Origin: an uncultured delta proteobacterium
GTDB taxonomy: Bacteria; Desulfobacterota; Binatia; UBA9968
Direction: 5' to 3'
Assembly (NCBI GenBank): GCA_963816145.1
Contig: CAWFJP010000014.1
Coordinates: 160,001 to 224,000 of the forward strand
DNA length: 64,000 bases
The notes beneath the pieces are model-generated. The model searched no databases and was not told the origin of the DNA. It saw only the letters and a list, made by a program, of their open reading frames with translations. Both the position numbers and the translations under genes were made by a program. How positions within the stretch are numbered: position 1 is the first letter of the stretch; each line of letters starts with the position of its first letter. This document shows positions 38,162-61,758 of this stretch, piece by piece.

Positions 38162-40075
38162 TCAGGTTTTTGCGCCAAGTGCCCGCGCGATATAATCGCG
38201 CCGAACCTTGGTGCGCGGAACTTTGCCGGTAAACCAGCTCCGCACATCGGCGTCGAGGCCGATGCCGTGCATGTAGTTGTACAACGCCTTGTTCAGGGCT
38301 GTGCCGAGGGCGTCGTGGTCGACGCCGATGGGGTCGAGGAAGCCGACGTCGTTTTTGGCGAACGAGATCTCCGGCAAAGGGACGAGCGTGACGCCGTATT
38401 GTTCGGGATGCTTGCCCACCGGTGAATGCACCGTGCAGGCAAAGCGGTGGAAGAAGCCTGACTGGATGCAGCCGGCTATGAACAATTGCCGGACATATTC
38501 GAGGGCATCAACCGTGTCTTGCACGGTTTGGGTCGGGAAGCCGTACATCAAATAGGCGTGGACGAGAATGCCGGCGTCGGAAAATGCGCGCGTGACTCTG
38601 GCGACTTGCTCGACGCTGACGCCCTTCTTCATTAAATTGAGCAGGCGGTCGGAGGCGACCTCGAGCCCGCCGGATACCGCGATGCAGCCGCTGTCGACGA
38701 GTTCTTGGCAGAGCTGCGGCGTGAAAGATTTCTCGAAGCGAATGTTGCCCCACCATGAAATGGCCAGCTTGCGTTTCTTGATCTCGGCGGCGAGTGCTTT
38801 CAAGGTTTTTGGCGGTGCGGCCTCGTCGACGAAATGAAATCCGGTCTGTTGGGTTTCGGCGATGACGGTCTCGATGCGGTCGGCCAGGGTTGCGGCGGCG
38901 AGGTCGTCGTAGCGCGAGATGTAGTCGAGGGTGACGTCGCAGAAACTGCACTTTTTCCAGTAGCAGCCGTGGGCGACGGTGAGTTTGTTCCAGCGGCCGT
39001 CGGACCACAGCCGATGCATCGGGTTGAGCATGTCCAGTAGCGACAAGTAGCCGTCGAGCGGCAGTCCGTCCCAAGTCGGCGTGCCTACTTCCGCGAATGG
39101 AATGTCGGGCTCGCGTGCGTCGATGTAGCGGATTGTGGATTTATCGGCAGTGCGCCGGAAGGTGCGAACCAAATTGCTTTCGGGCCGGTTGCCGCCCAGA
39201 TATTCTAATAACGCCAACAGCGGCCGCTCGCCGTCATCCAAGGTGACATAGTCGAAATAATCGAACACCCGCGGCTCGCTCAGTTCGCGCAGCTCGGTGT
39301 TGACATAGCCGCCGCCGAGCGCGGTGATTATCGATGAATCGCGGGCTTTGATCGCCTGGGCGATGCGAAACGCGGCGTACACCGAGCCTGGGAACGGCAC
39401 CGAGAGCAGCACCAGATTCGGCGCATGGCGCGCCAGCGCCGCCAGCGTTAGGTCACGCAGTGTGCTGTCGACCAGATTGAGCGGCGCGGCCAGCGCTTCG
39501 GCGAGGGGATCGAAGGTCGGTTGGCTTTGCGCTAGAGACTCGGCATAGCGGACGAACTCAAAGCGCGGGTCGACGGCCTCGCGCAACACGTCGGCGAGAT
39601 CATCGAGGTAAAGAGTCGCCAAGTGTTTAGCGCGGTCTTCTATCCCAAGCGCTCCGAACGCCCAAGCCAGTGGATCGTCGGTGCCGCCTTGCAGATAAAA
39701 ATCTATTGGCTTGAAGCGCGGCCCTTCGGGAAGGAATTGCCGTCCACAAATGCGATGCGCCAGGGTCGGATCACGCCCCTGCAGGAACGCGATGGCGGGG
39801 GTGATCGTCGAGAGATAACGGTCGAATTTCTGGAGAAATGCTTTGGCGATCGGCGAACGCTTGCGCTGCGGGATCGCCTCGGCACGGTCCCGGATGGCTA
39901 ACAGCCCGTCAGTGGAAAAAAGCTTTAAGACTAGAGCCAATGCAAGATCTTCCTGCACAGCATCGAAACCCCGCGAGCGCAAGAAGCCGGTGAGATATGC
40001 CGTTGACGGATATGGCGTATTTAGCTGAGTCATCGGTGGGATTAGCGACAGCACGCGAATAGAATTGGTCGACAT
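38162..40075 (-). CDS. B12-binding-domain radical SAM protein
   Basis: CYWKKCSFC (CxxxCxxC), N-terminal PP.TQLNTPYP and GGGY.NTELR. Confidence 0.9.
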   Translation of the reverse strand: MSTNSIRVLSLIPPMTQLNTPYPSTAYLTGFLRSRGFDAVQEDLALALVLKLFSTDGLLAIRDRAEAIPQRKRSPIAKAFLQKFDRYLSTITPAIAFLQGRDPTLAHRICGRQFLPEGPRFKPIDFYLQGGTDDPLAWAFGALGIEDRAKHLATLYLDDLADVLREAVDPRFEFVRYAESLAQSQPTFDPLAEALAAPLNLVDSTLRDLTLAALARHAPNLVLLSVPFPGSVYAAFRIAQAIKARDSSIITALGGGYVNTELRELSEPRVFDYFDYVTLDDGERPLLALLEYLGGNRPESNLVRTFRRTADKSTIRYIDAREPDIPFAEVGTPTWDGLPLDGYLSLLDMLNPMHRLWSDGRWNKLTVAHGCYWKKCSFCDVTLDYISRYDDLAAATLADRIETVIAETQQTGFHFVDEAAPPKTLKALAAEIKKRKLAISWWGNIRFEKSFTPQLCQELVDSGCIAVSGGLEVASDRLLNLMKKGVSVEQVARVTRAFSDAGILVHAYLMYGFPTQTVQDTVDALEYVRQLFIAGCIQSGFFHRFACTVHSPVGKHPEQYGVTLVPLPEISFAKNDVGFLDPIGVDHDALGTALNKALYNYMHGIGLDADVRSWFTGKVPRTKVRRDYIARALGAKT

Positions 40076-40415: not shown

Positions 40416-40790
40416 ATGCGCGTGCTCAAAATCAACGATCTTAAGGAAACCCCGATGGACACGGCAACGCCGATCGCCGGCTGGACCGGCGGGGCGGTGA
40501 GCCGGACGCGGCAGGCGGTCATCGGCGATGGGCAGTCGGACAACTTCCGCTGTAACGTGGTCAACTTTCGCGTCGGCGCCACCACCGGCTGGCATGTCCA
40601 TGACTGCGATCAGATTCTCGTGGTCACGGCCGGCAAAGGCTTCGCCGCGACGGAGAGTGAACAGCGCGAGATCACCGTCGGCGATATCGTGCATATTAAA
40701 TCTGGCGAGCGCCACTGGCACGGCGCTTCGGCGGATTCGCCGCTGTCGCATATCACGGTGACGACGGTGGGCAGCACTTCGAAGCATTAG
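40416..40790 (+). CDS. Cupin domain protein
   Basis: WHVHDCDQ and GERHWHGA; AAGGAGG RBS. Confidence 0.88.
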   Translation: MRVLKINDLKETPMDTATPIAGWTGGAVSRTRQAVIGDGQSDNFRCNVVNFRVGATTGWHVHDCDQILVVTAGKGFAATESEQREITVGDIVHIKSGERHWHGASADSPLSHITVTTVGSTSKH

Positions 40791-40850
40791 CCGGTCGGTT
40801 ATGATTTTGGGCGAAGGTTTGGTATCGGGACCGTTCCAAGGAGGATTTTC

Positions 40851-41741
40851 ATGGAAATTATCCGCGGCAACTTGAGCGATATCAAAGGCATCCCGCCGAG
40901 CGGTTTATGCGTCGGTGTGCACCGCGCCGGCGCGGTGCATAAGAAGATGGTCGCCAAGCATGGCGACGGTCTGGCGGTCTGGTCGCTTAGGCCCGATCTC
41001 GATTTCATCGCGTTCAAAAAGGAAGGCCTTGGTGAACAGGGGATTCGCTCGACCAACGACATGGCATCGATCGACGGCAATGAAAAACTGATTTATGGCG
41101 TGCGCGGCGCGCCGCCCGAGGTGCGCGAAACGGCGCGCGAGAAAGGTCTGACGCTGCTCGCCGACGCGACCTGTCCCTTTGTTTTACAGCAGGAAGAGGC
41201 CGAGATCGAGCTACTCAACGACGGGCGCCACTTGGTGTTACTCAGTAGTCCTACCCATCACGGCGTGCCGAGGATTCAAGGCATCGCGCGGACCAAGGGT
41301 AAAGAAGTCTTTATCGTCGAGCATGAGGACCAGGTCGACTCGATCCATCTGACTCGATTCGAACCCATCGGCGTGATCGTGCAGACGACTTTCTGGGTGG
41401 AAACCTACAAGAAAATCGTCGCCCGTTTACTGGAGCATTTCGCCAACGTGCAAATTCGCAACACTTCCTGCATCGACTCGCTGCAGCGCCTTCCCGAAGT
41501 CGAGAAGCTCGCCAAGCAAGTCGAAGCGATCGTTATTTTTGGCTGGACCGAAGGGATGACCACCCGGATGCTCGAAGTGGCGCGCGCTTTCAATCCGAAT
41601 GTTTACAAAATCGAGAAGGTGGACGATCTCCGGCTCGACTGGCTGCGCGGCAAGGAAACGGTCGGTATCATCGGTGCCAACGAGACACCCGAATGGATGA
41701 TGAACGATGCCATCGAGCGTATGAAGAGCATGGTGGCCTGA
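40851..41741 (+). CDS. Divergent IspH/LytB-fold [4Fe-4S] protein
   Basis: Three cluster Cys in IspH contexts (GLCVGV.RA, DATCPFV, NTSC) and QTT; VHN, AHG, HPE and SSN substrate motifs are absent. Confidence 0.85.
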   Translation: MEIIRGNLSDIKGIPPSGLCVGVHRAGAVHKKMVAKHGDGLAVWSLRPDLDFIAFKKEGLGEQGIRSTNDMASIDGNEKLIYGVRGAPPEVRETAREKGLTLLADATCPFVLQQEEAEIELLNDGRHLVLLSSPTHHGVPRIQGIARTKGKEVFIVEHEDQVDSIHLTRFEPIGVIVQTTFWVETYKKIVARLLEHFANVQIRNTSCIDSLQRLPEVEKLAKQVEAIVIFGWTEGMTTRMLEVARAFNPNVYKIEKVDDLRLDWLRGKETVGIIGANETPEWMMNDAIERMKSMVA

Positions 41742-41744
41742 ACC

Positions 41745-42026
41745 GTGCCGAAGATCACTTTCATTCCAGCGGAAAAATCGTTCGATGTCGCGCCAGGCAC
41801 GACCATCCTGGTTGCCGCAGTGCAAAACGGATTGCACCTGCGCCATGATTGCACCGAAGCGGTTTGCGGCACCGACCGGGTGAAGATCCTTTCCGGTGCG
41901 GAGCAGCTGAGTGCAATAACCGACAACGAGGAATTGACCCTCGAGATGATGAACGCGGGGCCCAACGAAAGGCTGGCTTGCGTCGCACGGATCGCCGGCG
42001 ATGTGATTGTCGAAATGCCCGAATAA
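41745..42026 (+). CDS. 2Fe-2S ferredoxin with CxxxxCxxD...C motif
   Basis: G.TIL.AA, HDCTEAVCGTD and RLAC. Confidence 0.85.
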   Translation: MPKITFIPAEKSFDVAPGTTILVAAVQNGLHLRHDCTEAVCGTDRVKILSGAEQLSAITDNEELTLEMMNAGPNERLACVARIAGDVIVEMPE

Positions 42027-42045
42027 GCGACTCTAAGGAGAATTA

Positions 42046-43152
42046 ATGCCGGCACCTGTGGCAATTCTAGCAAAACCGGACGATCACCGCGGCATTCTCA
42101 CCATGGCAGAAGCGGTCGACGCGATGCTCGATGCATTTCGCAATTGGGCGAATGACCCGCTGGTGGCGGAGCTGCGGCGACGCACGCACACGCCGAAGAA
42201 CGTGCGCATTACCCTACATCAGGGCGCGGCACCGGCTTATGGCACGACGGGCATCATGACCCATGCGGAGCTTGTGCGCATTTTCGGCGACAAACAAAAA
42301 TATCCGCGCCGCGGCCGCCCGGTTCTGGTGCTTTATGACAGCGACACGGCGGCTTTGAAGCTCATTCTCGTCGGCGAAATGCATCCCAAGGAGCTGCCGG
42401 ACGCCAACAGCGTGGTGGCGATGCCGACGGCCTGTGCCTCGATGGTCGGCACCGATTTGCTCGCGCGCAAAGACTGCCGGGTCGCCGGGGTTTTCGGTGC
42501 TGGAGATCAAGCGAAGATGCATCTCCTGGCGCTCACCTGTATTCGCAAGTCGATTGACAAGGCGCGCGTCTTCAGTCCGACCCGCGAGACTCGCGAAAAC
42601 TTTGCCGCGGAAATGAGCGCCGTATTGGGCATCGCAGTGACCGCCGCGGAGAGCGCTGCAGATGTTGTCGACGGCGCCGACGTAATCCTGTGCGCGACCA
42701 ATTCAAATGTTCCGGTATTCGACGGCAATTGGCTGGTTCCCGGCCAACATGTCACCTCGATCGTTTCGAGCAATATCGGATTGAAAAAGCGCGGCCACGT
42801 CATTGAAATGCGCCGCGAGATCGACGAGAGGACTCTGGAGCGGGCCGATATTTTGCTGACCAACGTTTGGGGACAGGAAGAGCTGGACAAGACCGCGGTG
42901 TTCTGGGAAGCCTCTCTCGATCGCCCAAACATCGCGGGCAAGATTGTCGATAGCGGAGAGCTCATCCGCGGTGAAAAAAGCGGACGAACCGACGCTGCTC
43001 AAATTACCTATTTCAAAAACTGCGCGTTTTGGGGTATTGGCGCGGCGGCCATCGGCGGACTGATCTATGACAAACTCTTGCAGCAGCGCAAGGGTTTGGC
43101 GCTCGACTTCAACCCGCATGAGTTCTATGACGATACTTGGGCGGAGGATTAG
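42046..43152 (+). CDS. Ornithine cyclodeaminase/mu-crystallin family protein
   Basis: FGAGDQA Rossmann motif, ADVILCATNS, GQHVTSI, REID and ITYFK. Confidence 0.88.
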   Translation: MPAPVAILAKPDDHRGILTMAEAVDAMLDAFRNWANDPLVAELRRRTHTPKNVRITLHQGAAPAYGTTGIMTHAELVRIFGDKQKYPRRGRPVLVLYDSDTAALKLILVGEMHPKELPDANSVVAMPTACASMVGTDLLARKDCRVAGVFGAGDQAKMHLLALTCIRKSIDKARVFSPTRETRENFAAEMSAVLGIAVTAAESAADVVDGADVILCATNSNVPVFDGNWLVPGQHVTSIVSSNIGLKKRGHVIEMRREIDERTLERADILLTNVWGQEELDKTAVFWEASLDRPNIAGKIVDSGELIRGEKSGRTDAAQITYFKNCAFWGIGAAAIGGLIYDKLLQQRKGLALDFNPHEFYDDTWAED

Positions 43153-43218
43153 ATTTGTTTGAATGAGCGGGAAGCCTGGGTTACAGCGCGAAGATGATCG
43201 CAAGGAGGATTGGATAGC

Positions 43219-44124
43219 ATGCGCGGTATAACACCGAGACGAGAACAGGGCATGGCCGATCCGGTGTTGGCCGAGATGGTTCATGCCACCGGGGCGACGG
43301 AGTCGCGTCACTACGCGGCGGTGAAGCCGATCATTCAAGCCTATCGCGCCAGTTGGGTGAAGTTGGCGCCGTTTCGCGACGGGCCGGTCAACCCCCAGCG
43401 CGTGCCGGTCGACGATCCGGCGGCGATGACGGCGCAGATCAAGGCGAAGGCGAGCGAGTGGGGCGCCAACTTGGTCGGCGTCTGCCGCCTGCAGCCGCAT
43501 ATGATCGATCTCGGCTCGGAAGTGTCCCACGAGTTTGTCATCGCCTGCTGCGTCGCCGAAGACTACGAAAAGGTGCTTCAAGGCCCGGACGCCGTCGAGG
43601 AAGAGGCGATGCGGACGTACGCGAAGTGCACCGAGATATCCACTGCGTTAGCTGCCTACGTCCGTGAGATGGGATATCCCGCCATCGCGCACCACAACGG
43701 CGCCAGCGAGGTGCAGGCGATCCCAATTTTCTACCAAGTCGGATTCGGCGAGCTCGGCCGGCATGGCAGTCTGATCAATGAAAAGTATGGCGCGAGCTTT
43801 CGCCCTGGTTTCGTCACCACCGATTTGCCGCTCGTCGAAGACCAGCCGCGAGAGTTCGGCGTTCAGGACTTCTGCATGAACTGCAACGTTTGCCAGCGCA
43901 ACTGCCCGGGCGACGCGATCCCGCAAGACCATGTCATGACCCATGGCATCAAGCGCTGGCTGATCGATTTGGAGAAGTGCTATCCGTATTCCCGCCTGCG
44001 CGAGGAGTATTGCCATCTCTGCGTCGACGTCTGCCCGTACAACGTGAAGTCGCATCCGGACACGTACAAAGCGCTTATGAAAGAGCGTAAACAGGTTGGC
44101 TATAAGACACCAAAGACTTATTGA
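43219..44124 (+). CDS. Reductive-dehalogenase/QueG-like 2x[4Fe-4S] protein (probably cobalamin-binding, no TAT signal)
   Basis: GANLVG, GFGELGRHG, VTTDLPL, FCMNCNVCQRNCP and C..CHLCVDVCP. ATG 43219 follows AAGGAGG. Confidence 0.85.
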   Translation: MRGITPRREQGMADPVLAEMVHATGATESRHYAAVKPIIQAYRASWVKLAPFRDGPVNPQRVPVDDPAAMTAQIKAKASEWGANLVGVCRLQPHMIDLGSEVSHEFVIACCVAEDYEKVLQGPDAVEEEAMRTYAKCTEISTALAAYVREMGYPAIAHHNGASEVQAIPIFYQVGFGELGRHGSLINEKYGASFRPGFVTTDLPLVEDQPREFGVQDFCMNCNVCQRNCPGDAIPQDHVMTHGIKRWLIDLEKCYPYSRLREEYCHLCVDVCPYNVKSHPDTYKALMKERKQVGYKTPKTY

Positions 44125-44203
44125 AGCGAGTTTGCACTAAGAGATCTCGGAAAAGAATATTTTCCCGCAAAGGCGCAAAGGCGCTAAGTTCGGAAAGGTT
44201 GGG

Positions 44204-44401
44204 ATGGAAAAGCTTTACGTCAATGCCATCGGACCCGACGGTGATGTCAGCACTGTCGGTTTGTTTTACTCGCAACCTGAAGCGCAAAAAACTGTTGACA
44301 TGCTGGGAACCAATCCCGAGCGAGTCGGTTATCGCTACGAAATCGTCGAAGCGGTGCGGCATGTGCTTTCAGAAAAAAATCCGCCAACCAGCAAGGAGTA
44401 G
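44204..44401 (+). CDS. Small hypothetical protein (65 aa)
   Basis: ATG start; stop lies 2 nt before the next ATG, and the ORF contains that gene's AAGGAG RBS. Confidence 0.5.
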   Translation: MEKLYVNAIGPDGDVSTVGLFYSQPEAQKTVDMLGTNPERVGYRYEIVEAVRHVLSEKNPPTSKE

Positions 44402-44403
44402 CC

Positions 44404-44955
44404 ATGCCCTATATCAAGACGATTCCGCCCACAGAGGCGACCGGAAAACTGAAGGAAGTCTATGAAACGGCGGGCGGCCCTTCGGCGGCGCGCGGCAAGG
44501 TCGCGATGGTGCGCCAGGTGCAAAGCCTCAATGCCGACGCGCTCGCCGCCTGGAGCGATCTTGGCGCAGCGATCATGCACGGCCCGTCGCGCCTGAGCAG
44601 GCGCCAGCGCGAGATGATCGCCACGGTGGTGTCGGCGACCAATCATTGCAGCTATTGAACGACTGCGCACGGAGAGGCTCTCCGTAGCGAAACCCACGAC
44701 GATCCGTTCGTCAAAGCGATTAAACAGGATTACACCAAGATTGATTTAACGGCAGCGGAGCGGGCCATGCTCGATTACGCGGTGAAACTGACGGTGACGC
44801 CGTCGAGCGTAACGGCAGAAGATGTTTTGATATTGCGCGCTCATGGGTTCGACGACCGCGATATACTCGACATCATCTACGTTGTTTGTTTGTACAATTT
44901 TAACGACCGGCTGGCCGACGCGACCGGCATCAAAGGGCATGATTTTCTTAGTTGA
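44404..44955 (+). CDS. AhpD/carboxymuconolactone-decarboxylase-like peroxidase selenoprotein (CxxU), 183 aa
   Basis: REMIATVVS..NHCSY-TGA(44656-44658)-TTAHGEAL continues in frame into ORF 44767-44955 (AMLDYA.KLT..P...NRLAD-like C-terminus). Confidence 0.9.
44666..44689 (+). promoter_or_regulatory. Bacterial SECIS-like hairpin
   Basis: CGC-ACGGAGA-[GGC]-TCTCCGT-A-GCG; G-initiated loop starts 17 nt after the UGA. Confidence 0.8.
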
Positions 44956-44994
44956 CATCGTCCGCCGCCGGGTGTGACGCACAGGTTGGCCATT

Positions 44995-45876
44995 ATGCCG
45001 TTCAGCTACGCCGAGTTCATGACTCAACTGATGGCGCCCAAGCCCTATCCAGCGCAGGCGGTTTTTACCGCGCCCCGGATAACGGCACTGCGCAAGCCGG
45101 TTGCAGAATGCACCCTCGGTGTCTTTACCAGCTGTGGCGCACAGCTGAAGGACGACCGACCGCTGGCCGAGACCAACGATCTTTCCTACCGGCTGCTGCA
45201 CCGTGACGTAGCGCTCTCGGAGCTGAAGATCAATCACATGACGCCGTCGCGCAAGTGGGCGCTGGAGGACTTGAACGTCGCTTATCCGCGCGACCGGCTG
45301 ATCGAGTTGGAGGCGGAGGGGGTTTTCAAGAAGCTTGCGCCCAGCGCCGTTTCCATGGTCGGTTCGATCACGTTGTACACGGAGCTTTTGAGCGATGCCG
45401 TGCCGCGGATCAAGCAAGAATTCGACCGGCAGGAAGTCGACCTGGTGCTGATCGTGCCGTTTTGACCGCAATGCCATCGGTCCGTGGGACTGATCGCAAG
45501 AGGACTGGAAGCGAGAGGTTTGCCGACCGTGAGCCTGAGCACCGTATGGGACATCACTCTGGCGGTAAAACCGCCGCGGCCATGCTTCCTGGATTTCCCG
45601 ATCGGCTGTCCGGTCGGCAAGCCGGGCATGCCGGAATTGCAGCGGCAAATACTGAAAGCGGTCTTCTCCCAGGCGGAGAAATTTACCGGTGATTGGGCGC
45701 TGCATGAGCTGCCCTTCCAGTGGGCAAAGGATGGCAGCCGTCATTGGGAGGAAGAGCTCAAGGATCTCTACCGGCGAGGCCTCGGCACGGTGGAGGCGCA
45801 TGTTGCGGATCATCGCCGTCGCGGTGAGGCGCTGATCGGTCAAGAGGAAGCGTTTGCGCTGCGCTGCAATTGCTAG
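44995..45876 (+). CDS. Glycine/sarcosine/betaine/D-proline reductase selenoprotein B (GrdB/PrdB)-like protein (UxxC), ~293 aa
   Basis: VDLVLIVPF-TGA(45463-45465)-PQCHRSVGLIARGLEARGLPTV joins ORFs 44974-45465 and 45484-45876 in one frame; also D.N..YP.DRL.ELE.EG and PPR..F..FP.G.P.G. Confidence 0.92.
45472..45498 (+). promoter_or_regulatory. Bacterial SECIS-like hairpin
   Basis: TGC-C-ATCGGTCC-[GTG]-GGACTGAT-C-GCA; GU loop starts 18 nt after the UGA. Confidence 0.8.
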
Positions 45877-45933
45877 CGTCCTGTCCACCCACTGACCGCC
45901 AGCCAATGAACGTATGAAAAGGAAGGTGCTGCG

Positions 45934-46719
45934 ATGATCGAACTCTATCACAACGACATGTCGGTGTGCGCGCAAAAGGTGCGTTTTACCCTGGCCGAGA
46001 AGAAACTTGCTTGGGACAGCCACCATATGAATCTGCGCGCCGGCGATCAGCAAAAGCCGGAATATTTGAAACTCAATCCCAACGCCCTGGTGCCTACCCT
46101 GGTCGACGATGGCACCGTTATTATCGAATCCACCGTGATCAACGAATATCTCGATGACGCGTATCCCGACCTGCCGCTGCGTCCGGCGGCCGCGACCGCG
46201 CGGGCGCGCATGCGTCTATGGACCAAACAGTTGGATGAAGGCGTTCACGCCGCGACCAGCGTGGTCAGCTCGGCGATCGCCTTTCGCTATCAAAAGCTCG
46301 CCATCGGCATGGAAGCGCTCGAAGAATTTCACAGGAAGATGCCCGACCCGGTGAAGCGCGAGAAGAGCTGGGAGAATGTCACCAAGGGCGTCGAGTCGCG
46401 CTTTTTCCCCGAGGCGGTCATGCGCTTCGACAAATTGCTTGGCGACATGGAGTCGGCCTTGAAAGACTCTCCGTGGCTCGCCGGCAAAGAGTTCTCGCTG
46501 GCCGATATCGGCTACGCGCCCTATGTTACCCGGCTCGATCACCTGCAACTGCAATTTCTCTGGGACAAGCGGCCGCACATTCCAGAATGGTACGATCGGC
46601 TGCGCGAACGGCGCGCGTATGGTGAGGCGCTGGAAAACTGGTTCAATCCCGCCTATTTGCCGCTGATGAAGGAAAAAGGATCGGAAGCGCGAGCCCGGGT
46701 CAAAGAGATCGTCGGCTAA
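45934..46719 (+). CDS. Glutathione S-transferase family protein (N-terminal SVC motif)
   Basis: LYH..MSVCAQKVR, LNP...VPTL, ES..I.EYLD and FSLADI. Confidence 0.9.
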   Translation: MIELYHNDMSVCAQKVRFTLAEKKLAWDSHHMNLRAGDQQKPEYLKLNPNALVPTLVDDGTVIIESTVINEYLDDAYPDLPLRPAAATARARMRLWTKQLDEGVHAATSVVSSAIAFRYQKLAIGMEALEEFHRKMPDPVKREKSWENVTKGVESRFFPEAVMRFDKLLGDMESALKDSPWLAGKEFSLADIGYAPYVTRLDHLQLQFLWDKRPHIPEWYDRLRERRAYGEALENWFNPAYLPLMKEKGSEARARVKEIVG

Positions 46720-47806: not shown

Positions 47807-47866
47807 GTCTAACGTTTTCGGTGAGAGGCGCGAATTTCAGCGTCCTTCTCGACCCAATGGTTAGGT
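47807..47866 (-). mobile_element. attC site (60 bp)
   Basis: Minus strand ACCTAAC (contains the toxin TAA)...GTTAGAC; inner stem with unpaired G and T on the opposite strand. Confidence 0.9.
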
Positions 47867-48199
47867 TCCGATAATCTCGTTCAATCCTTCAACAACCTGA
47901 GCCAATTCCTCTGGAGACGCCCGACCCATCACCTTTCCAATCCGTTCGACCGCGAGTGTTCGGATCTGGCTGATTTTCACCCACGACTTTTTCGGTAGCC
48001 CCCGTACATGAAGTTCGAGTGTTAAGGGGAACCCAGCGCGTTGAGGTTGACTCGTGAGCGCAACAGCAATCACCGTTCCGGAACGTTCATTGAAAACGTC
48101 CTGGCTTAGAATCAAAACCGGACGTAATCCGGCCTGTTCACGTCCCCGTACCGGATTCAAGTCGGCCCAGCGGATTTCACCCCTCAGTATTCGGGCCAT
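47861..48199 (-). CDS. mazF: Type II toxin, PemK/MazF family endoribonuclease
   Basis: RGEI.WADL.P..G.EQ.G.RP.LILS and QIRT..ER motifs. Confidence 0.93.
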
Positions 48200-48426
48200 T
48201 CCGCTAGATCCTCGGACAGCCCTTCTTCTGCAAGCGCCTTCTCAAAGGTAGGATCGAGCTTGGCGCACTCTTGGGCTAGACGACTTTTCTCAAGCCGCGC
48301 GAGTTTCTCCGCAACAGCTTCCTCGATGGCCTGACTACGGTTGGGAAAGACTTGTTTCTTAACCAGTTGATCGAGACGAGCGAGGGTAGATTCATCTAAA
48401 GAAATTGCAACCTTGGATCTTGCCAT
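48184..48426 (-). CDS. Ribbon-helix-helix (CopG) antitoxin
   Basis: KVAISLD...LD.LV....NRS.AI and an acidic tail; overlaps the toxin start. Confidence 0.88.
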
Positions 48427-57773: not shown

Positions 57774-57918
57774 ATTCTCCGCCCGATGCAATTTAGGGTT
57801 GAGCAATGAAGGTCGTATACCGACGCCGCTCGACCGAAAAGGCGCACTTGTGATATTGGTCGCAGCCGTGAGTAATTTTCTACGAGCAGAGTTGCGCAGC
57901 GTTTTTGCTTGCTGCGTC

Positions 57919-60430
57919 ATGCTCTCGACGGCGGGCGGTTTTACGGCTTGCGCTTTGTCTCCGGATGGCTCGGCGCAGCGGCAGCGACCATTTGTTTCCG
58001 CGCCATCGGATGGCTTTACCAATTTTGAAACCGAACCGGTGCGCCCATTGGCGCTGTCGGCGGACGGTCGCTATCTCTACGCACTCAACACCGCTGACGA
58101 CCGCTTGGAGATCTTTGAAACGCAGGGCGACGAGCTGCGTTCAATCGGCGAAACCGGAGTCGGCCTGCGCCCGGTGGCGCTCGTCGTGCGCGGGCAACAA
58201 GTTTGGGTCGTTAACCATTTGTCCGACTCGGTGAGCGTCGTCGATGTCGGTGATCCGGCGCGCCCCCGTGTCATCCACACACTGCAAGTGGGCGACGAGC
58301 CGCGCGGCATAGTGGTTGGCGGGCCGAAGCGGGATCGCGTGTTCGTCGCCACGGCGCGGCGCGGCGAAACCCTGACCCCTGGCATTGGACGGGCACAGCT
58401 CTGGGTCTTCGACGCGGCGCGGCCGGAGGCGCCGCCGCGGATCGTGACGCTGTTCGGCGCCAAGCCGCGCGCCCTTGCGGCGTCCGCCGACGGCAGGCGT
58501 ATTTATGCCGCGGTGTTTCTTTCCGGCAACCGCACCGCTTCAGTCTCTGGCGAAGACGCCGTGCGCCTCGGCCGGGCGCGGCAAATCTATTTCGATAATA
58601 TTCCGTATGCCGCTGTGCCCAAACAGGGCGTCATTGTGAAGCGAACCGAGCGCGGTTGGCGCGACTACGACGGTCGCGACTGGAGCGCCGCGGTGGCGTT
58701 CGATTTGCCGGATTACGATGTCTTCGTCATCGATGCCGAGGTGGAGCAGCCTAGGGTCGTCCAGACCATCAGCGATGTCGGCACGGTGCTGTTCAACATG
58801 GCGGTGCAGCCCGGCACTGGCGAGATTTGGGTATCCAACACCGAGGCGTTCAATCTCATCCCGTTCGAATCCCGGCTCAACGGTCGATTCGCCGAGAATC
58901 GCATTACGCGGGTGGTCCCGGATCAGTCGAACGATTACCGGACGGTGGTGGTTGATTTGAATCCGCATATCGCGTCCGCTGCGGGACGCGCCGCTGGCGA
59001 GATCGGACTAGCGCAACCGTTGGATTTGGTTTTTCAACCCGATGGGGGCGAAGCCTACGTCGCTGCGTTCGGTTCGCGCAAGGTCGGCGTGCTCGATGGC
59101 AGCGGCACCATCATTGATCACATCAACGTTGGTTTCGGCCCCGGCGGCTTGGCCCTCGACCCAAAGCGCCGGCGGCTGTATGTGCTCAACCATCTCGCTG
59201 CGACGATCTCGATCGTTGATCCTGGCAAGCGCCGGAGCATTGGAGAAGTCGCCTTGCGCCACGATCCGACGCCCGCGACGATCAAGGAAGGACGGCGTTT
59301 TTTTTACGACGCCGCCTTGACTTCGCGCTTCGGCGATTTGTCCTGCGCCACCTGTCATGTGTTCGGAGATGTCGATGGATTGGCCTGGGACCTGGGCGAT
59401 CCCAGCGGGCCGACGTTGGATATTCCGGTCGGCTTGCGCAACACCGGGCTCTCCACGCCGCGGCAAAACCTCCACCCTCTCAAAGGTCCCATGGTGACGC
59501 AGAGTTTGCGCGGGCTTGCCGGCAACGCGCCGTATCATTGGCGCGGCGACCGTTTCGGCGATGCGGCGGCGCCGGGCGGCGACGTCGCAGGCTTCAAAGA
59601 CTTCAATCCGGCCTTTGTCGATCTGCTCGGCCGCGCCGAAGAGATTACCGATGCGGCGATGGAGGCATTCGCCCGCTATATTTTCACCATCCGTTTCCCG
59701 CCCAATCCGCTGCAGCGGCTCGATCGCTCTTTCGATGCGCAGCAACAAGCCGGCTTCGAGTTTTTTACCGGGCCGTTCCTTTCCGGCTCCGGACAACAAA
59801 ATTGCGAGAACTGTCACCAACTCCCGGCAGGCACCAATCGTTTGGTCAATTTCGAAGGGCCGCAGATCGGCCGCGATATGAAGACAGCGCAGCTGCGCAA
59901 CGTCTACGACAAAATCGGCCGCTTCAATGCCGCCGGACCGCAAGTGTCGGGCTTCGGTCTGCTGCACGACGGCACCTTCGAAAGCGTGGCGAGTTTTTTG
60001 CGCTTGGACGTGTTCTTTTTCCCCGGAAACTCCGAGACGGAGAAAGATGTGATTCGGCGCCAGCTGCATGATTACGTTATGGCATTTGATACCGGCATGG
60101 CGCCGGCGGTGGGACGGCAGCTGACCATCAACGGCGCATTGACAGGCGATGAGCGGCCGACCTTCGAACTGCTTACGAACCGAGCCGGGGCTGGCGATTG
60201 CGACCTCATCGCCCGCGGCTGGGAAGGAAAAGCTCTGCGCGGCTGGTTGTATAAAAGCGGCGCATTCCAAGGGGATCGCAGCGGCGAACCGGCGCTGGCC
60301 CCGGATGCGCTGCTCGAGCGTTTCATTAATTACGGCGAACCGTTGACGCTGACCTGCGTGCCGCCGGGGGACGGCCGGCGCAGCGCCCTCGATCGCGCCT
60401 TGGATGGAAATCTCGACGGCGACGCGAAGG
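57919..60430 (+). CDS. YVTN/YncE-type beta-propeller fused to a di-heme cytochrome c peroxidase-like domain (N-terminal part of ORF 57799-61758; both ends approximate)
   Basis: Propeller repeats (WVVNHLSDSVSVVD, VGDEP); CATCH at 59344-59358, CENCH at 59803-59817 and PYHWRGD. Confidence 0.85.
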
Positions 60431-60573
60431 CGCGCCGGCGGCGCTCGGGCGGGGCATCGCAGCTTTGTGCGGCAAGCGGAATTCAACCCATGAGATGGTC
60501 AGAACTTGACATGCCGCGGCGGAGCCGCCGGTGCAATTCGGAATCTCCCGCGCAAACACGCAAGGTCGTAAAG

Positions 60574-61758
60574 TTGTCGACTCGATTTCGAAGACTGGCG
60601 TCATGTCGAGATCGCTGCGGATTTGCCGGGCGATATTTCAATTTCAATCAATCGATCGTCGCGATGCTCACGGCGATCTCGTTGGCCGCTTGCGCCGGTC
60701 TTCCCGTGCACGGCCTGGTCGGCGGACAGAGTTTCGACACCCGAGTCGATGCCGAAGTAGCGCAGTATTATCTGGCGAGCTATCTTTCCGGCCGCCGCAC
60801 CGACCCGGTGCTCGACCAGCGAATCGCCAAACTCTACCAGAACCCTTCCGGACTGCTACCCGACCGCGCCGAGCTCAAGCGTCTGAGCGATGAATTTTCC
60901 GTCGATTTCGCCGCGGCGTATTTCGCCGACCGCGTCGCCGAGATGCCCGACAATCGGCAATTCAGACGTGTGTTCAGCGAGAACCGCCGCGCCTTTGCCC
61001 AAGGCCACTTGAAACTGCCGGCGGTTGCGGCCCAGTACGAGGTGATGTTCGTGCCGACATATCTTTATAAGAGAGTGCCGTTGATCGGCTCGGATCTCGC
61101 CGTGCCCAAAAAGGCGTTGGAGAAAGCCGGCATGGCGGTGCATTTCGTCGAGACGGTGGAAGACGGCGCCGTCGAGGCCAACGCGGAGATTGTCGCCGCC
61201 GCGATCGTGTCACGGACGTCGAGCGGGCGGCGTTTGATTCTCGTCAGCGCGAGCAAATCCGGACCCGAAGTGGCGCTCGCCTTGACGCAGCTGGGACCGG
61301 TGCGGTCGCGCCATGTCGCCGGCTGGGTCAATGTGGTCGGCGCCCTGCAAGGAACGCCGCTTGCCGACGAGAAGGCGCTGTCCGACGCGGAGAGCCTGAT
61401 CGGCGCGGTCGATCCGGCCGGCATGGAAAGTTTGACGACCGAGCGGAGCCGGCGCCGCTTTAGACGATTTCGCCTCCCCGACCACATCATGGTCGTGAAC
61501 TACTTCGGCATCCCGCTCTCGGGTGATTTGTCGTCCTGGGCTCGGGTTGGATTCAAACCCTTGTCCAGGTATGGCCCCAATGACGGCATTCTTTTGCTCC
61601 CCGATATGATTTTCCCGGGCGGCATCAGCGTTGCCGAGATCGGTTTGGATCATTTCTTATTGGATCGAAATACCGATGCGGCCACGGTCGGCCTGGTGGC
61701 GGCGATGATGCAATGGATCGGGCAGGCGCCCGGCACGTTCATGCCGGTCTCAAACTGA
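60574..61758 (+). CDS. Alpha/beta-hydrolase-like lipoprotein (C-terminal part of ORF 57799-61758; start uncertain)
   Basis: Lipobox LAAC (Cys codon 60691), SASKSG nucleophile elbow, GTP.AD, NDG and DH. Confidence 0.7.
   Translation: MSTRFRRLASCRDRCGFAGRYFNFNQSIVAMLTAISLAACAGLPVHGLVGGQSFDTRVDAEVAQYYLASYLSGRRTDPVLDQRIAKLYQNPSGLLPDRAELKRLSDEFSVDFAAAYFADRVAEMPDNRQFRRVFSENRRAFAQGHLKLPAVAAQYEVMFVPTYLYKRVPLIGSDLAVPKKALEKAGMAVHFVETVEDGAVEANAEIVAAAIVSRTSSGRRLILVSASKSGPEVALALTQLGPVRSRHVAGWVNVVGALQGTPLADEKALSDAESLIGAVDPAGMESLTTERSRRRFRRFRLPDHIMVVNYFGIPLSGDLSSWARVGFKPLSRYGPNDGILLLPDMIFPGGISVAEIGLDHFLLDRNTDAATVGLVAAMMQWIGQAPGTFMPVSN

Follow-up and report, generated by a model that had tools for sequence, protein, structure and literature searches.

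A run of nine co-oriented genes occupies positions 40416-46719 on the forward strand of the window, the 64-kb stretch of contig CAWFJP010000014.1 (positions 160,001 to 224,000) from an uncultured bacterium of the Binatia that was analysed here, and two of these genes are interrupted by an in-frame TGA codon. In order, they encode a monocupin of 124 amino acids (aa; 40416-40790), a 296-aa LytB/IspH-fold [4Fe-4S] protein (40851-41741), an atypical 93-aa 2Fe-2S ferredoxin (41745-42026), a 368-aa NAD(P)-dependent enzyme of the ornithine cyclodeaminase (OCD)/mu-crystallin family (42046-43152), a putative RdhA/QueG-like corrinoid/2x[4Fe-4S] reductase of 301-304 aa (43210-44124), a 65-aa protein of no family, referred to as orf65 (44204-44401), a 183-aa AhpD-like predicted selenoprotein (44404-44955), a 293-aa PrdB-like predicted selenoprotein (44995-45876) and a 261-aa glutathione S-transferase (GST) with GST_N and GST_C domains (45934-46719). 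The gaps between successive genes are 60, 3, 19, 57, 79, 2, 39 and 57 nt. The open reading frame (ORF) listing and the Pfam and NCBIfam scans agreed with an earlier note on this DNA as to the nine genes, their common orientation and short gaps, and every gene family that it had named.

The same note had suggested that an intergenic repeat at 44147-44194, between the RdhA-like gene and orf65, might split the cluster into two transcripts. The repeat found there is limited to an 8-nt tandem duplication (CGCAAAGG x2; 44166-44181, no strand assigned) adjoining a 6-bp palindrome; in the related locus L059 the copy is imperfect, and the related locus L001 lacks the entire spacer. The spacer folds no better than shuffled sequences (z +0.29), and no terminator-like site was predicted in this or any other intergenic gap by a promoter/terminator scan that was itself uninformative, returning fewer sites than in shuffles. 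As the spacer has no significant fold or terminator and its repeat is poorly kept, it gives no evidence of a split in the cluster.

Selenocysteine codons of the PrdB-like and AhpD-like genes

The in-frame TGA of the PrdB-like gene (45463-45465) falls within the motif U157-P-Q-C160. A search with the read-through translation found 297 database homologs (E ≤ 0.001), and those listed, at least 120, are 267-314 aa long and share 50-59% identity with the query; a scan of GTDB genomes gave 79 PrdB-like loci. Alignments of 16 and 50 sequences show the motif F-[C/U]-P-x-C-H without variation, the homologs having Cys at the site of the window's UGA. The codon at this site is TGA in 16 of the 79 loci (L001-L013, L016, L040 and L059) and TGC or TGT in the other 63, so that together with the window there are 17 selenocysteine (Sec) forms, which come from several phyla. 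The conserved reading frame continues for 136 codons past the UGA.

Across the 17 Sec forms, nucleotides 13-35 downstream of the UGA hardly vary, even at wobble sites. Third positions 15, 18, 21, 27 and 30 are 100% conserved in the Sec forms compared with 41-63% in the Cys forms, and position 33 is 94% conserved compared with 43%. The UGA and its hairpin together span 45463-45498 in the window, the hairpin itself lying at 45472-45498 and having as its core an 8-bp stem (AUCGGUCC/GGACUGAU) with a GUN loop, to which three outer pairs are added in the fold; a G-to-A change in L016 and L040 converts a G-U pair to A-U within the hairpin. The stem begins about 10-11 nt past the UGA and has GU in its loop, which is the geometry of bacterial selenocysteine insertion sequence (SECIS) elements. 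Over nucleotides 11-36 the minimum free energy (MFE) averages -12.4 kcal/mol among the Sec forms (-14.5 to -9.6) and -5.7 kcal/mol among the 63 Cys forms (-11.8 to 0). Cys at the homologous site, combined with a hairpin whose invariant wobble bases are specific to the UGA forms, indicates that the UGA of the PrdB-like gene is a Sec codon.

The AhpD-like gene carries its TGA at 44656-44658, in the CxxU motif H-C-S-Y-U (C82-S-Y-U85). After read-through the protein scores 143.6 bits against TIGR01926 (cut-off 81.8), which places it within that family. A SECIS-like hairpin at 44666-44689 (44656-44689 with the UGA) starts 10 nt from the first base of the UGA and has an MFE of -20.7 kcal/mol over a 60-nt stretch (z -2.17). 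The L001 ortholog, 76% identical, has TGA at the same codon and an identical hairpin core. A family score above the cut-off and the retention of TGA and hairpin in L001 point in the same direction as the evidence for the PrdB-like gene, and on these comparisons both in-frame UGAs are predicted to be selenocysteine codons. A further selenoprotein gene was seen in L001 (L001:3951-4499, + strand), encoding an OsmC-related protein (NF041052, PF02566) with TGA at residue 84 in the motif G-F-U-M; it sits between the AhpD-like and PrdB-like genes of that locus and has no counterpart in the window.

It is very improbable that the TGAs are true stops and the genes split genes or pseudogenes encoding no selenoproteins. 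Such a reading would fit the window in that no sel gene families were found among its scanned proteins and no tRNA, hence no Sec machinery or tRNA-Sec, in its 64 kb, and in that Rfam gave no match over the whole window at gathering threshold, hence no SECIS family. It would not explain why TGA stands exactly at the catalytic Cys codon in 17 sequences of several phyla with conserved protein downstream, why a hairpin with invariant wobble bases is confined to the TGA forms, or why the AhpD-like TGA and hairpin recur in L001, and AhpD-like proteins and PrdB are both known selenoprotein families. The distribution of Cys and TGA at the site, the hairpins and the conservation in L001 thus bear out the two hidden selenoproteins of the earlier note. 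Both genes are cut short by standard gene callers, which warrants re-annotation, and the PrdB-like Sec forms yield a very clean SECIS signature with which the family can be annotated.

The word 'undescribed', which that note applied to the candidate cluster, does not fit the two selenoprotein families, since AhpD-like CxxU and PrdB UxxC proteins have long been catalogued, in surveys covering non-clostridial bacteria and metagenomes from the ocean (PMC1088965, PMC2398784, PMC1794560, PMC13188914). A selenoprotein table lists the former as TIGR01926 and D-proline reductase (UxxC) as TIGR04483 (PMC13188914), and excerpts of the survey papers place PrdB and AhpD-like proteins among the most abundant Sec families in the Sargasso Sea, in Global Ocean Sampling (GOS) data and in some Deltaproteobacteria, with 'proline reductase PrdB' counted as 42 Sec forms in the Sargasso Sea data and, in GOS, as 235 Sec and 110 Cys forms (PMC1088965, PMC2398784, PMC1794560). 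The AhpD-like protein of the window has the same motif as the catalogued family (TIGR01926/COG2128) and scores above its cut-off, so that only its neighbours are unusual. The survey PrdB UxxC family (Sargasso Sea, GOS, Anaeromyxobacter, Geobacter) resembles the PrdB-like proteins described here in comprising non-clostridial Sec homologs with Cys homologs alongside, and the window protein likely belongs to the same subfamily. The available excerpts of the survey papers give that family no function or gene context (PMC1088965, PMC2398784, PMC1794560). Full-text literature searches turned up no report of AhpD-like(U) and PrdB-like(U) proteins together with an RdhA-like corrinoid enzyme. The selenoproteins of the window are new members of already catalogued families, and it is their combination with the RdhA-like enzyme that appears to be new.

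An orphan PrdB-like protein, a short RdhA-like enzyme and their companions

The PrdB-like protein matches the TIGR04483 PrdB model over positions 17-236 of 238 (E 2.5e-33), with 115.5 bits against a cut-off of 300. Its scores against PF07355 (17.5, cut-off 22) and TIGR01917 (27, cut-off 602) leave it outside glycine/sarcosine/betaine reductase protein B. It shares with the PrdB of D-proline reductase (PrdA/PrdB; Clostridium sticklandii, Clostridioides difficile) near-full-length homology, a UxxC motif with Sec at the equivalent active-site position and a hairpin after the Sec-encoding UGA. It differs in scoring far under the PrdB cut-off and in an extra C-terminal extension of ~45 aa that ends in CxC (C291-N-C293); no PrdA, PrdC or PrdH lies near the window gene, and most family members are natural Cys forms. 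Among the marks of the PrdB equivalog, then, the UxxC motif was found, while the cut-off score and adjacent PrdA, PrdC and PrdH genes were not. The hosts are soil Binatia, Acidobacteriota and Actinomycetota, compared with Stickland fermenters for PrdA/PrdB. The families of PrdA/GrdE, GrdA, GrdC and GrdD were absent, as the earlier note had stated, from the 57 window proteins scanned with Pfam (the nine cluster proteins and 48 further ORFs), and no PrdA/GrdE was found among 84 scanned neighbour proteins of related loci.

Canonical PrdB and GrdB use Sec to break C-N bonds (PMC11229817, PMC13188914), and the U151C variant of C. difficile PrdB is reported to be inactive on D-proline (PMC11229817). 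Since the window protein scores under the cut-off and has no PrdA, and natural Cys forms dominate its family while PrdB U151C is inactive, we infer that this orphan PrdB-like protein is not a D-proline reductase and is instead a putative selenol/thiol redox enzyme. PrdB-type selenoproteins are abundant in organisms that cannot be carrying out Stickland proline reduction. A route from ornithine through proline to aminovalerate, formed by the OCD-family enzyme and the PrdB-like protein, was considered and rejected, OCD being missing in L001 and L059 and PrdA not being present. The AlphaFold2 (AF2) model of the PrdB-like protein is confident (predicted local distance difference test (pLDDT) 94.7, predicted template modelling score (pTM) 0.93). 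It had no fold match in the PDB (Foldseek, E ≤ 0.001) and the sequence no profile match there (E ≤ 1), and the GrdB/PrdB fold appears to be without a solved structure.

The RdhA-like enzyme matches the TIGR02486 reductive dehalogenase model (E 3.3e-34, 119.2 bits), and its match to QueG is weaker. Among solved structures NpRdhA (4RAS; E 3.6e-55) is the nearest; two stretches align, the stronger with residues 345-573 of NpRdhA, its functional core and Fe-S region, and PceA and QueG are far more distant. By homology to NpRdhA the protein is predicted to have a B12-binding (corrinoid) core and two [4Fe-4S] motifs, and eight Cys are invariant across 34 RdhA-like homologs. The proton-donor Tyr is kept, Y137 aligning with NpRdhA Y426, and R198 replaces K488 (residue roles from excerpts of PMC7565698). 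A 'simplified cytosolic' RdhA-like class without the vestigial domain, averaging 395 aa, has been described (PMC12219181), and the window enzyme is like it in having no vestigial second core and no membrane-anchor gene after it, the next gene, orf65, not being hydrophobic. By eye, no hydrophobic stretch of the twin-arginine translocation (TAT) type was seen at its N-terminus. With neither a TAT-type stretch nor a second core, the enzyme corresponds to the simplified cytosolic type, though at 301-304 aa it is shorter (NpRdhA exceeds 700 aa), and it has no fused reductase domain. Homologs number 758 at E ≤ 0.001; those listed, at least 120, are 75-94% identical and are named 'ferredoxin' or 'epoxyqueuosine reductase', with one entry from Candidatus Binatia. 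The L001 and L059 orthologs are 90-92% identical.

Directly downstream of the RdhA-like gene in the window, L001 and L059 stands orf65, which has no Pfam or NCBIfam match and is under clear purifying selection. Among its 304 homologs, those listed (at least 120) are 70-98% identical, and the four that name an organism are three Candidatus Binatia and one Deltaproteobacteria. A profile search gave 37 representative clusters among 1.84 billion proteins; three long matches in it (NACHT-LRR, coiled-coil and CarboxypepD_reg) appear to be chance repeat matches and were set aside. ESM Atlas returned only Binatota hypothetical-protein clusters. The AF2 model (pLDDT 83.5) has a beta-beta-alpha-beta core with no match in the PDB by Foldseek at E ≤ 0.001, the top hit, PaaB (E 0.58), serving as a lead only. 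An RdhA-like enzyme of ~300 aa with a dedicated 65-aa partner is common in metagenomes, with Binatia the sole phylum named among the closest matches, and its abundance bears on estimates of soil dehalogenation potential. A further difference from NpRdhA and the simplified class is what comes after the RdhA-like gene, namely the gene of a conserved 65-aa protein and, within this clade, genes for selenoproteins.

The assignments of the remaining proteins stood as the earlier note had them, including the IspH-fold and RdhA-like assignments and the atypical ferredoxin, in which Asp takes the place of the third Cys ligand. In this ferredoxin (Pfam Fer2; C36, C41, D44 and C79 in an alignment to PDB 9I2A) the residue concerned is Asp44, which is kept in the L059 ortholog (83% identity). 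The IspH-fold protein matches Pfam LYTB (E 3.9e-44), falls under every NCBIfam IspH cut-off (138.6 vs 276) and is 89% identical to its L059 ortholog. Its only three Cys (C20, C108 and C207) align with the three cluster ligands of 3DNF, whereas H-P-E is changed to H-H-G and H-N to D-F, and N-S-x-N is lost; these motifs hold the catalytic Glu and the diphosphate-binding residues of IspH. With the three motifs gone, the protein is predicted not to be a reductase of (E)-4-hydroxy-3-methylbut-2-enyl diphosphate (HMBPP), its substrate being something other than HMBPP. The cupin (Pfam Cupin_2, 37.7 bits) has (R)-mandelonitrile lyase as its best NCBIfam match (80 bits, under the cut-off of 140); in L001 an ortholog, 84% identical, immediately precedes the RdhA-like gene, and L059 is without one. 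The OCD-family enzyme (Pfam OCD_Mu_crystall, 113.5 bits) reaches no NCBIfam equivalog. The GST has an N-terminal S10-V-C12 and scores best with FzlA and maleylacetoacetate isomerase in NCBIfam, both under their cut-offs; the L059 ortholog is 86% identical and directly follows the PrdB-like gene.

Gene neighbourhoods of related loci

When eleven window proteins were compared with the 79 PrdB-like loci by tblastn, neighbours shared with the window were found at two loci (L001 and L059) and none at the other 77. In L001 the order is cupin, RdhA-like, orf65, AhpD(U), OsmC-like(U), PrdB(U) and then the contig end, and in L059 it is IspH-fold, ferredoxin, RdhA-like, orf65, PrdB(U), GST, so that the RdhA-like gene, orf65 and PrdB-like(U) are common to all three. 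The shared blocks are 80-82% (L059) and 75-85% (L001) identical to the window in nucleotide sequence. A quick tree groups the window with L059, L001 and L002 in one clade (SH-aLRT 100). The earlier note would have counted it as refutation if homologs of these genes were not neighbours in relatives, and this is mostly what was found: L001 and L059 do share neighbours, but they are only two loci of 79, belong to the window's own clade and each lack modules, and the neighbours of L002 are unrelated.

Between orf65 and the PrdB-like gene of L059, about 190 nt of AhpD remnant are left. A short ORF there (MPYFRTIAPAEG...; L059:9890-9945) matches the AhpD-like N-terminus and retains only ~12 codons of the AhpD 5' end, which indicates that AhpD was deleted in the L059 lineage from a larger cluster. 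The OCD segment is precisely missing in L059 (breakpoints at window 42044 and 43196) and is missing in L001 too. The AhpD remnant and the precise OCD absence point to losses from a larger ancestral cluster. In the L001 gap (1880-2240), a search for IspH, ferredoxin and OCD remnants gave noise-level matches only. The cupin, the IspH-fold and ferredoxin pair, OCD, AhpD-like(U), OsmC-like(U) (in L001) and GST are all variable between relatives, and by this comparison the cluster is predicted to be modular and not a fixed nine-gene pathway. Three database ORFs have other junctions: the RdhA C-terminus is fused to orf65 in P0393, orf65 leads into the N-terminus of a GST without an intervening PrdB-like gene in P0366, and the OCD N-terminus is fused to orf65 in P0371. 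They suggest that the cluster occurs in nature in other rearranged forms, or else they are artefacts of assembly.

The earlier note had treated the nine genes as one pathway, in which the PrdB-like protein is the terminal bond-cleaving enzyme; it would draw its electrons from the ferredoxin and the Fe-S/B12 proteins, and the AhpD-like protein and GST would recycle it. Co-orientation, gaps of 2-79 nt with no predicted terminator, and the similar identity of the shared blocks in both relatives are in keeping with a single unit, as is the L059 remnant with its suggestion of a larger ancestral cluster, and the Sec-dependent C-N bond cleavage by canonical PrdB and GrdB would supply a precedent for the chemistry. 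Against these stand the gene contents themselves: no related locus has all nine genes, L001 being without OCD, IspH and ferredoxin and L059 without OCD and AhpD, and 77 of the 79 PrdB-like loci have none of these neighbours. The PrdB-like family also has no pyruvoyl partner to hold a substrate, and an RdhA-type enzyme is itself a terminal reductase and is not known as an electron carrier to another enzyme. We regard the single nine-gene pathway as quite unlikely. The view of the PrdB-like protein as the bond-cleaving enzyme is weakened in particular, the common core including the RdhA-like enzyme, which is the more plausible bond-cleaving catalyst of the two.

In Acidobacteriota another order recurs around PrdB-like genes of the Cys form (L017, L018, L023, L031, L034, L036, L043, L044 and others), consisting of an unknown gene of ~250 aa, PrdB-like, Amidohydro_2, a dihaem-type cytochrome c and a PQQ (pyrroloquinoline quinone) dehydrogenase.

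Proposed function of the cluster

Our preferred reading, to which we give a probability of roughly 40%, is that the cluster is a lineage-specific, modular cytoplasmic operon for reductive catabolism or detoxification, centred on the RdhA-like enzyme and equipped with exchangeable thiol/selenol redox partners. In this scheme the RdhA-like enzyme would reductively cleave a carbon-heteroatom bond of a cytoplasmic substrate, in a dehalogenation-type or QueG-type reaction, with electrons that would ultimately come from NAD(P)H, the 2Fe-2S ferredoxin and IspH-fold Fe-S protein serving as carriers. The PrdB-like protein would be a selenol/thiol reductase or lyase that uses U157/C160, perhaps with the C-terminal CxC as a relay, and its target would be an intermediate or partner linked to a thiol or to glutathione; GST, the AhpD-like protein and the OsmC-like protein may be exchangeable helpers in thiol redox or detoxification. 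The window is one of few contexts that tie a PrdB-like protein to recognisable chemistry, namely that of the RdhA-like enzyme, the Fe-S proteins and GST.

Several results weigh against this reading. Co-location with an RdhA-like gene is limited to the window and two of the 79 loci, all inside the four-member clade, and the adjacency of RdhA-like and PrdB-like genes could be inherited synteny without functional coupling. In L002, a member of the same clade whose PrdB-like protein is 75% identical, the neighbours are LysR, luciferase-like, CmcJ/NvfI-family and major facilitator superfamily (MFS) genes, and what most often adjoins PrdB-like genes overall is no corrinoid enzyme gene but Amidohydro_2 (PF04909; 25 of 79 loci). 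The RdhA-like enzyme scores under the TIGR02486 cut-off of 160.35, and of the substrate-binding residues of NpRdhA, S422 is replaced by Ala and R552 is opposite a gap, which leaves dehalogenation a candidate activity. The cluster has no recognisable NAD(P)H:ferredoxin reductase, and no genes for cobalamin uptake, cobalamin synthesis or Sec machinery were found in the 64-kb window.

The main rival reading is that two unrelated units happen to adjoin. One would be catabolic and comprise the RdhA-like enzyme, orf65 and their Fe-S partners; the other would be an island for thiol/selenol stress defence that includes AhpD-like(U), OsmC-like(U), PrdB-like(U) and GST, and the two would have no substrate in common. 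Clustering is a general tendency among genes for selenoproteins. AhpD, OsmC and GST are families typical of peroxide and electrophile defence, and three consecutive selenoprotein genes stand in L001. Adjacent co-directional Sec genes, two in the window, are known from other selenoprotein operons (grdAB, prdBC, the SAO system and the clustering of peroxiredoxin (Prx)-like with AhpD-like genes reported in PMC13188914). The contexts in which PrdB-like genes are found are many and unrelated; 5 of the 16 Sec-form loci have a GST-family gene within about 3.5 kb, and in L004, L005, L007 and L008 a GST is near PrdB-like(U) without an RdhA-like gene. Against two such units, only 2 nt separate orf65 from the AhpD-like gene and gaps are short throughout, and in L059 the PrdB-like gene follows orf65 after only the short AhpD remnant. 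The RdhA-like gene, orf65 and the PrdB-like gene moreover stay together in three of the four clade members while the surrounding genes vary. We judge the two-unit arrangement to be rather unlikely, and favour over it the modular operon centred on the RdhA-like enzyme.

A bolder proposal, which we consider quite unlikely, is that the PrdB-like protein is a self-contained selenol/thiol reductase and that in the Binatia it would be linked in function with a minimal corrinoid enzyme of the RdhA-like type, of which the 65-aa protein would be a subunit. If true, it would be the first link between a Stickland-type selenoenzyme and B12-dependent chemistry of the reductive dehalogenase type, and this in aerobic-soil bacteria.

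Outside the cluster, a gene for a B12-binding radical S-adenosylmethionine (SAM) protein (class B methyltransferase-like; 38162-40075, - strand) lies upstream and is divergent from it, a second putative cobalamin enzyme near the RdhA-like gene that is not found in L001 or L059. A TIGR00027 methyltransferase gene and a MazF/ribbon-helix-helix (RHH) toxin-antitoxin pair (47861-48426) follow downstream on the opposite strand. Elsewhere the window has many genes for NMT1/THI5-type binding proteins, with at least 12 for NMT1/THI5-like solute-binding proteins dispersed over the 64 kb, as well as TctABC and MFS transporters and other genes. One of these (57799-61755, + strand) encodes a 1319-aa protein in which beta-propeller repeats with a weak resemblance to hydrazine synthase beta/gamma are combined with a CCP_MauG dihaem peroxidase segment.

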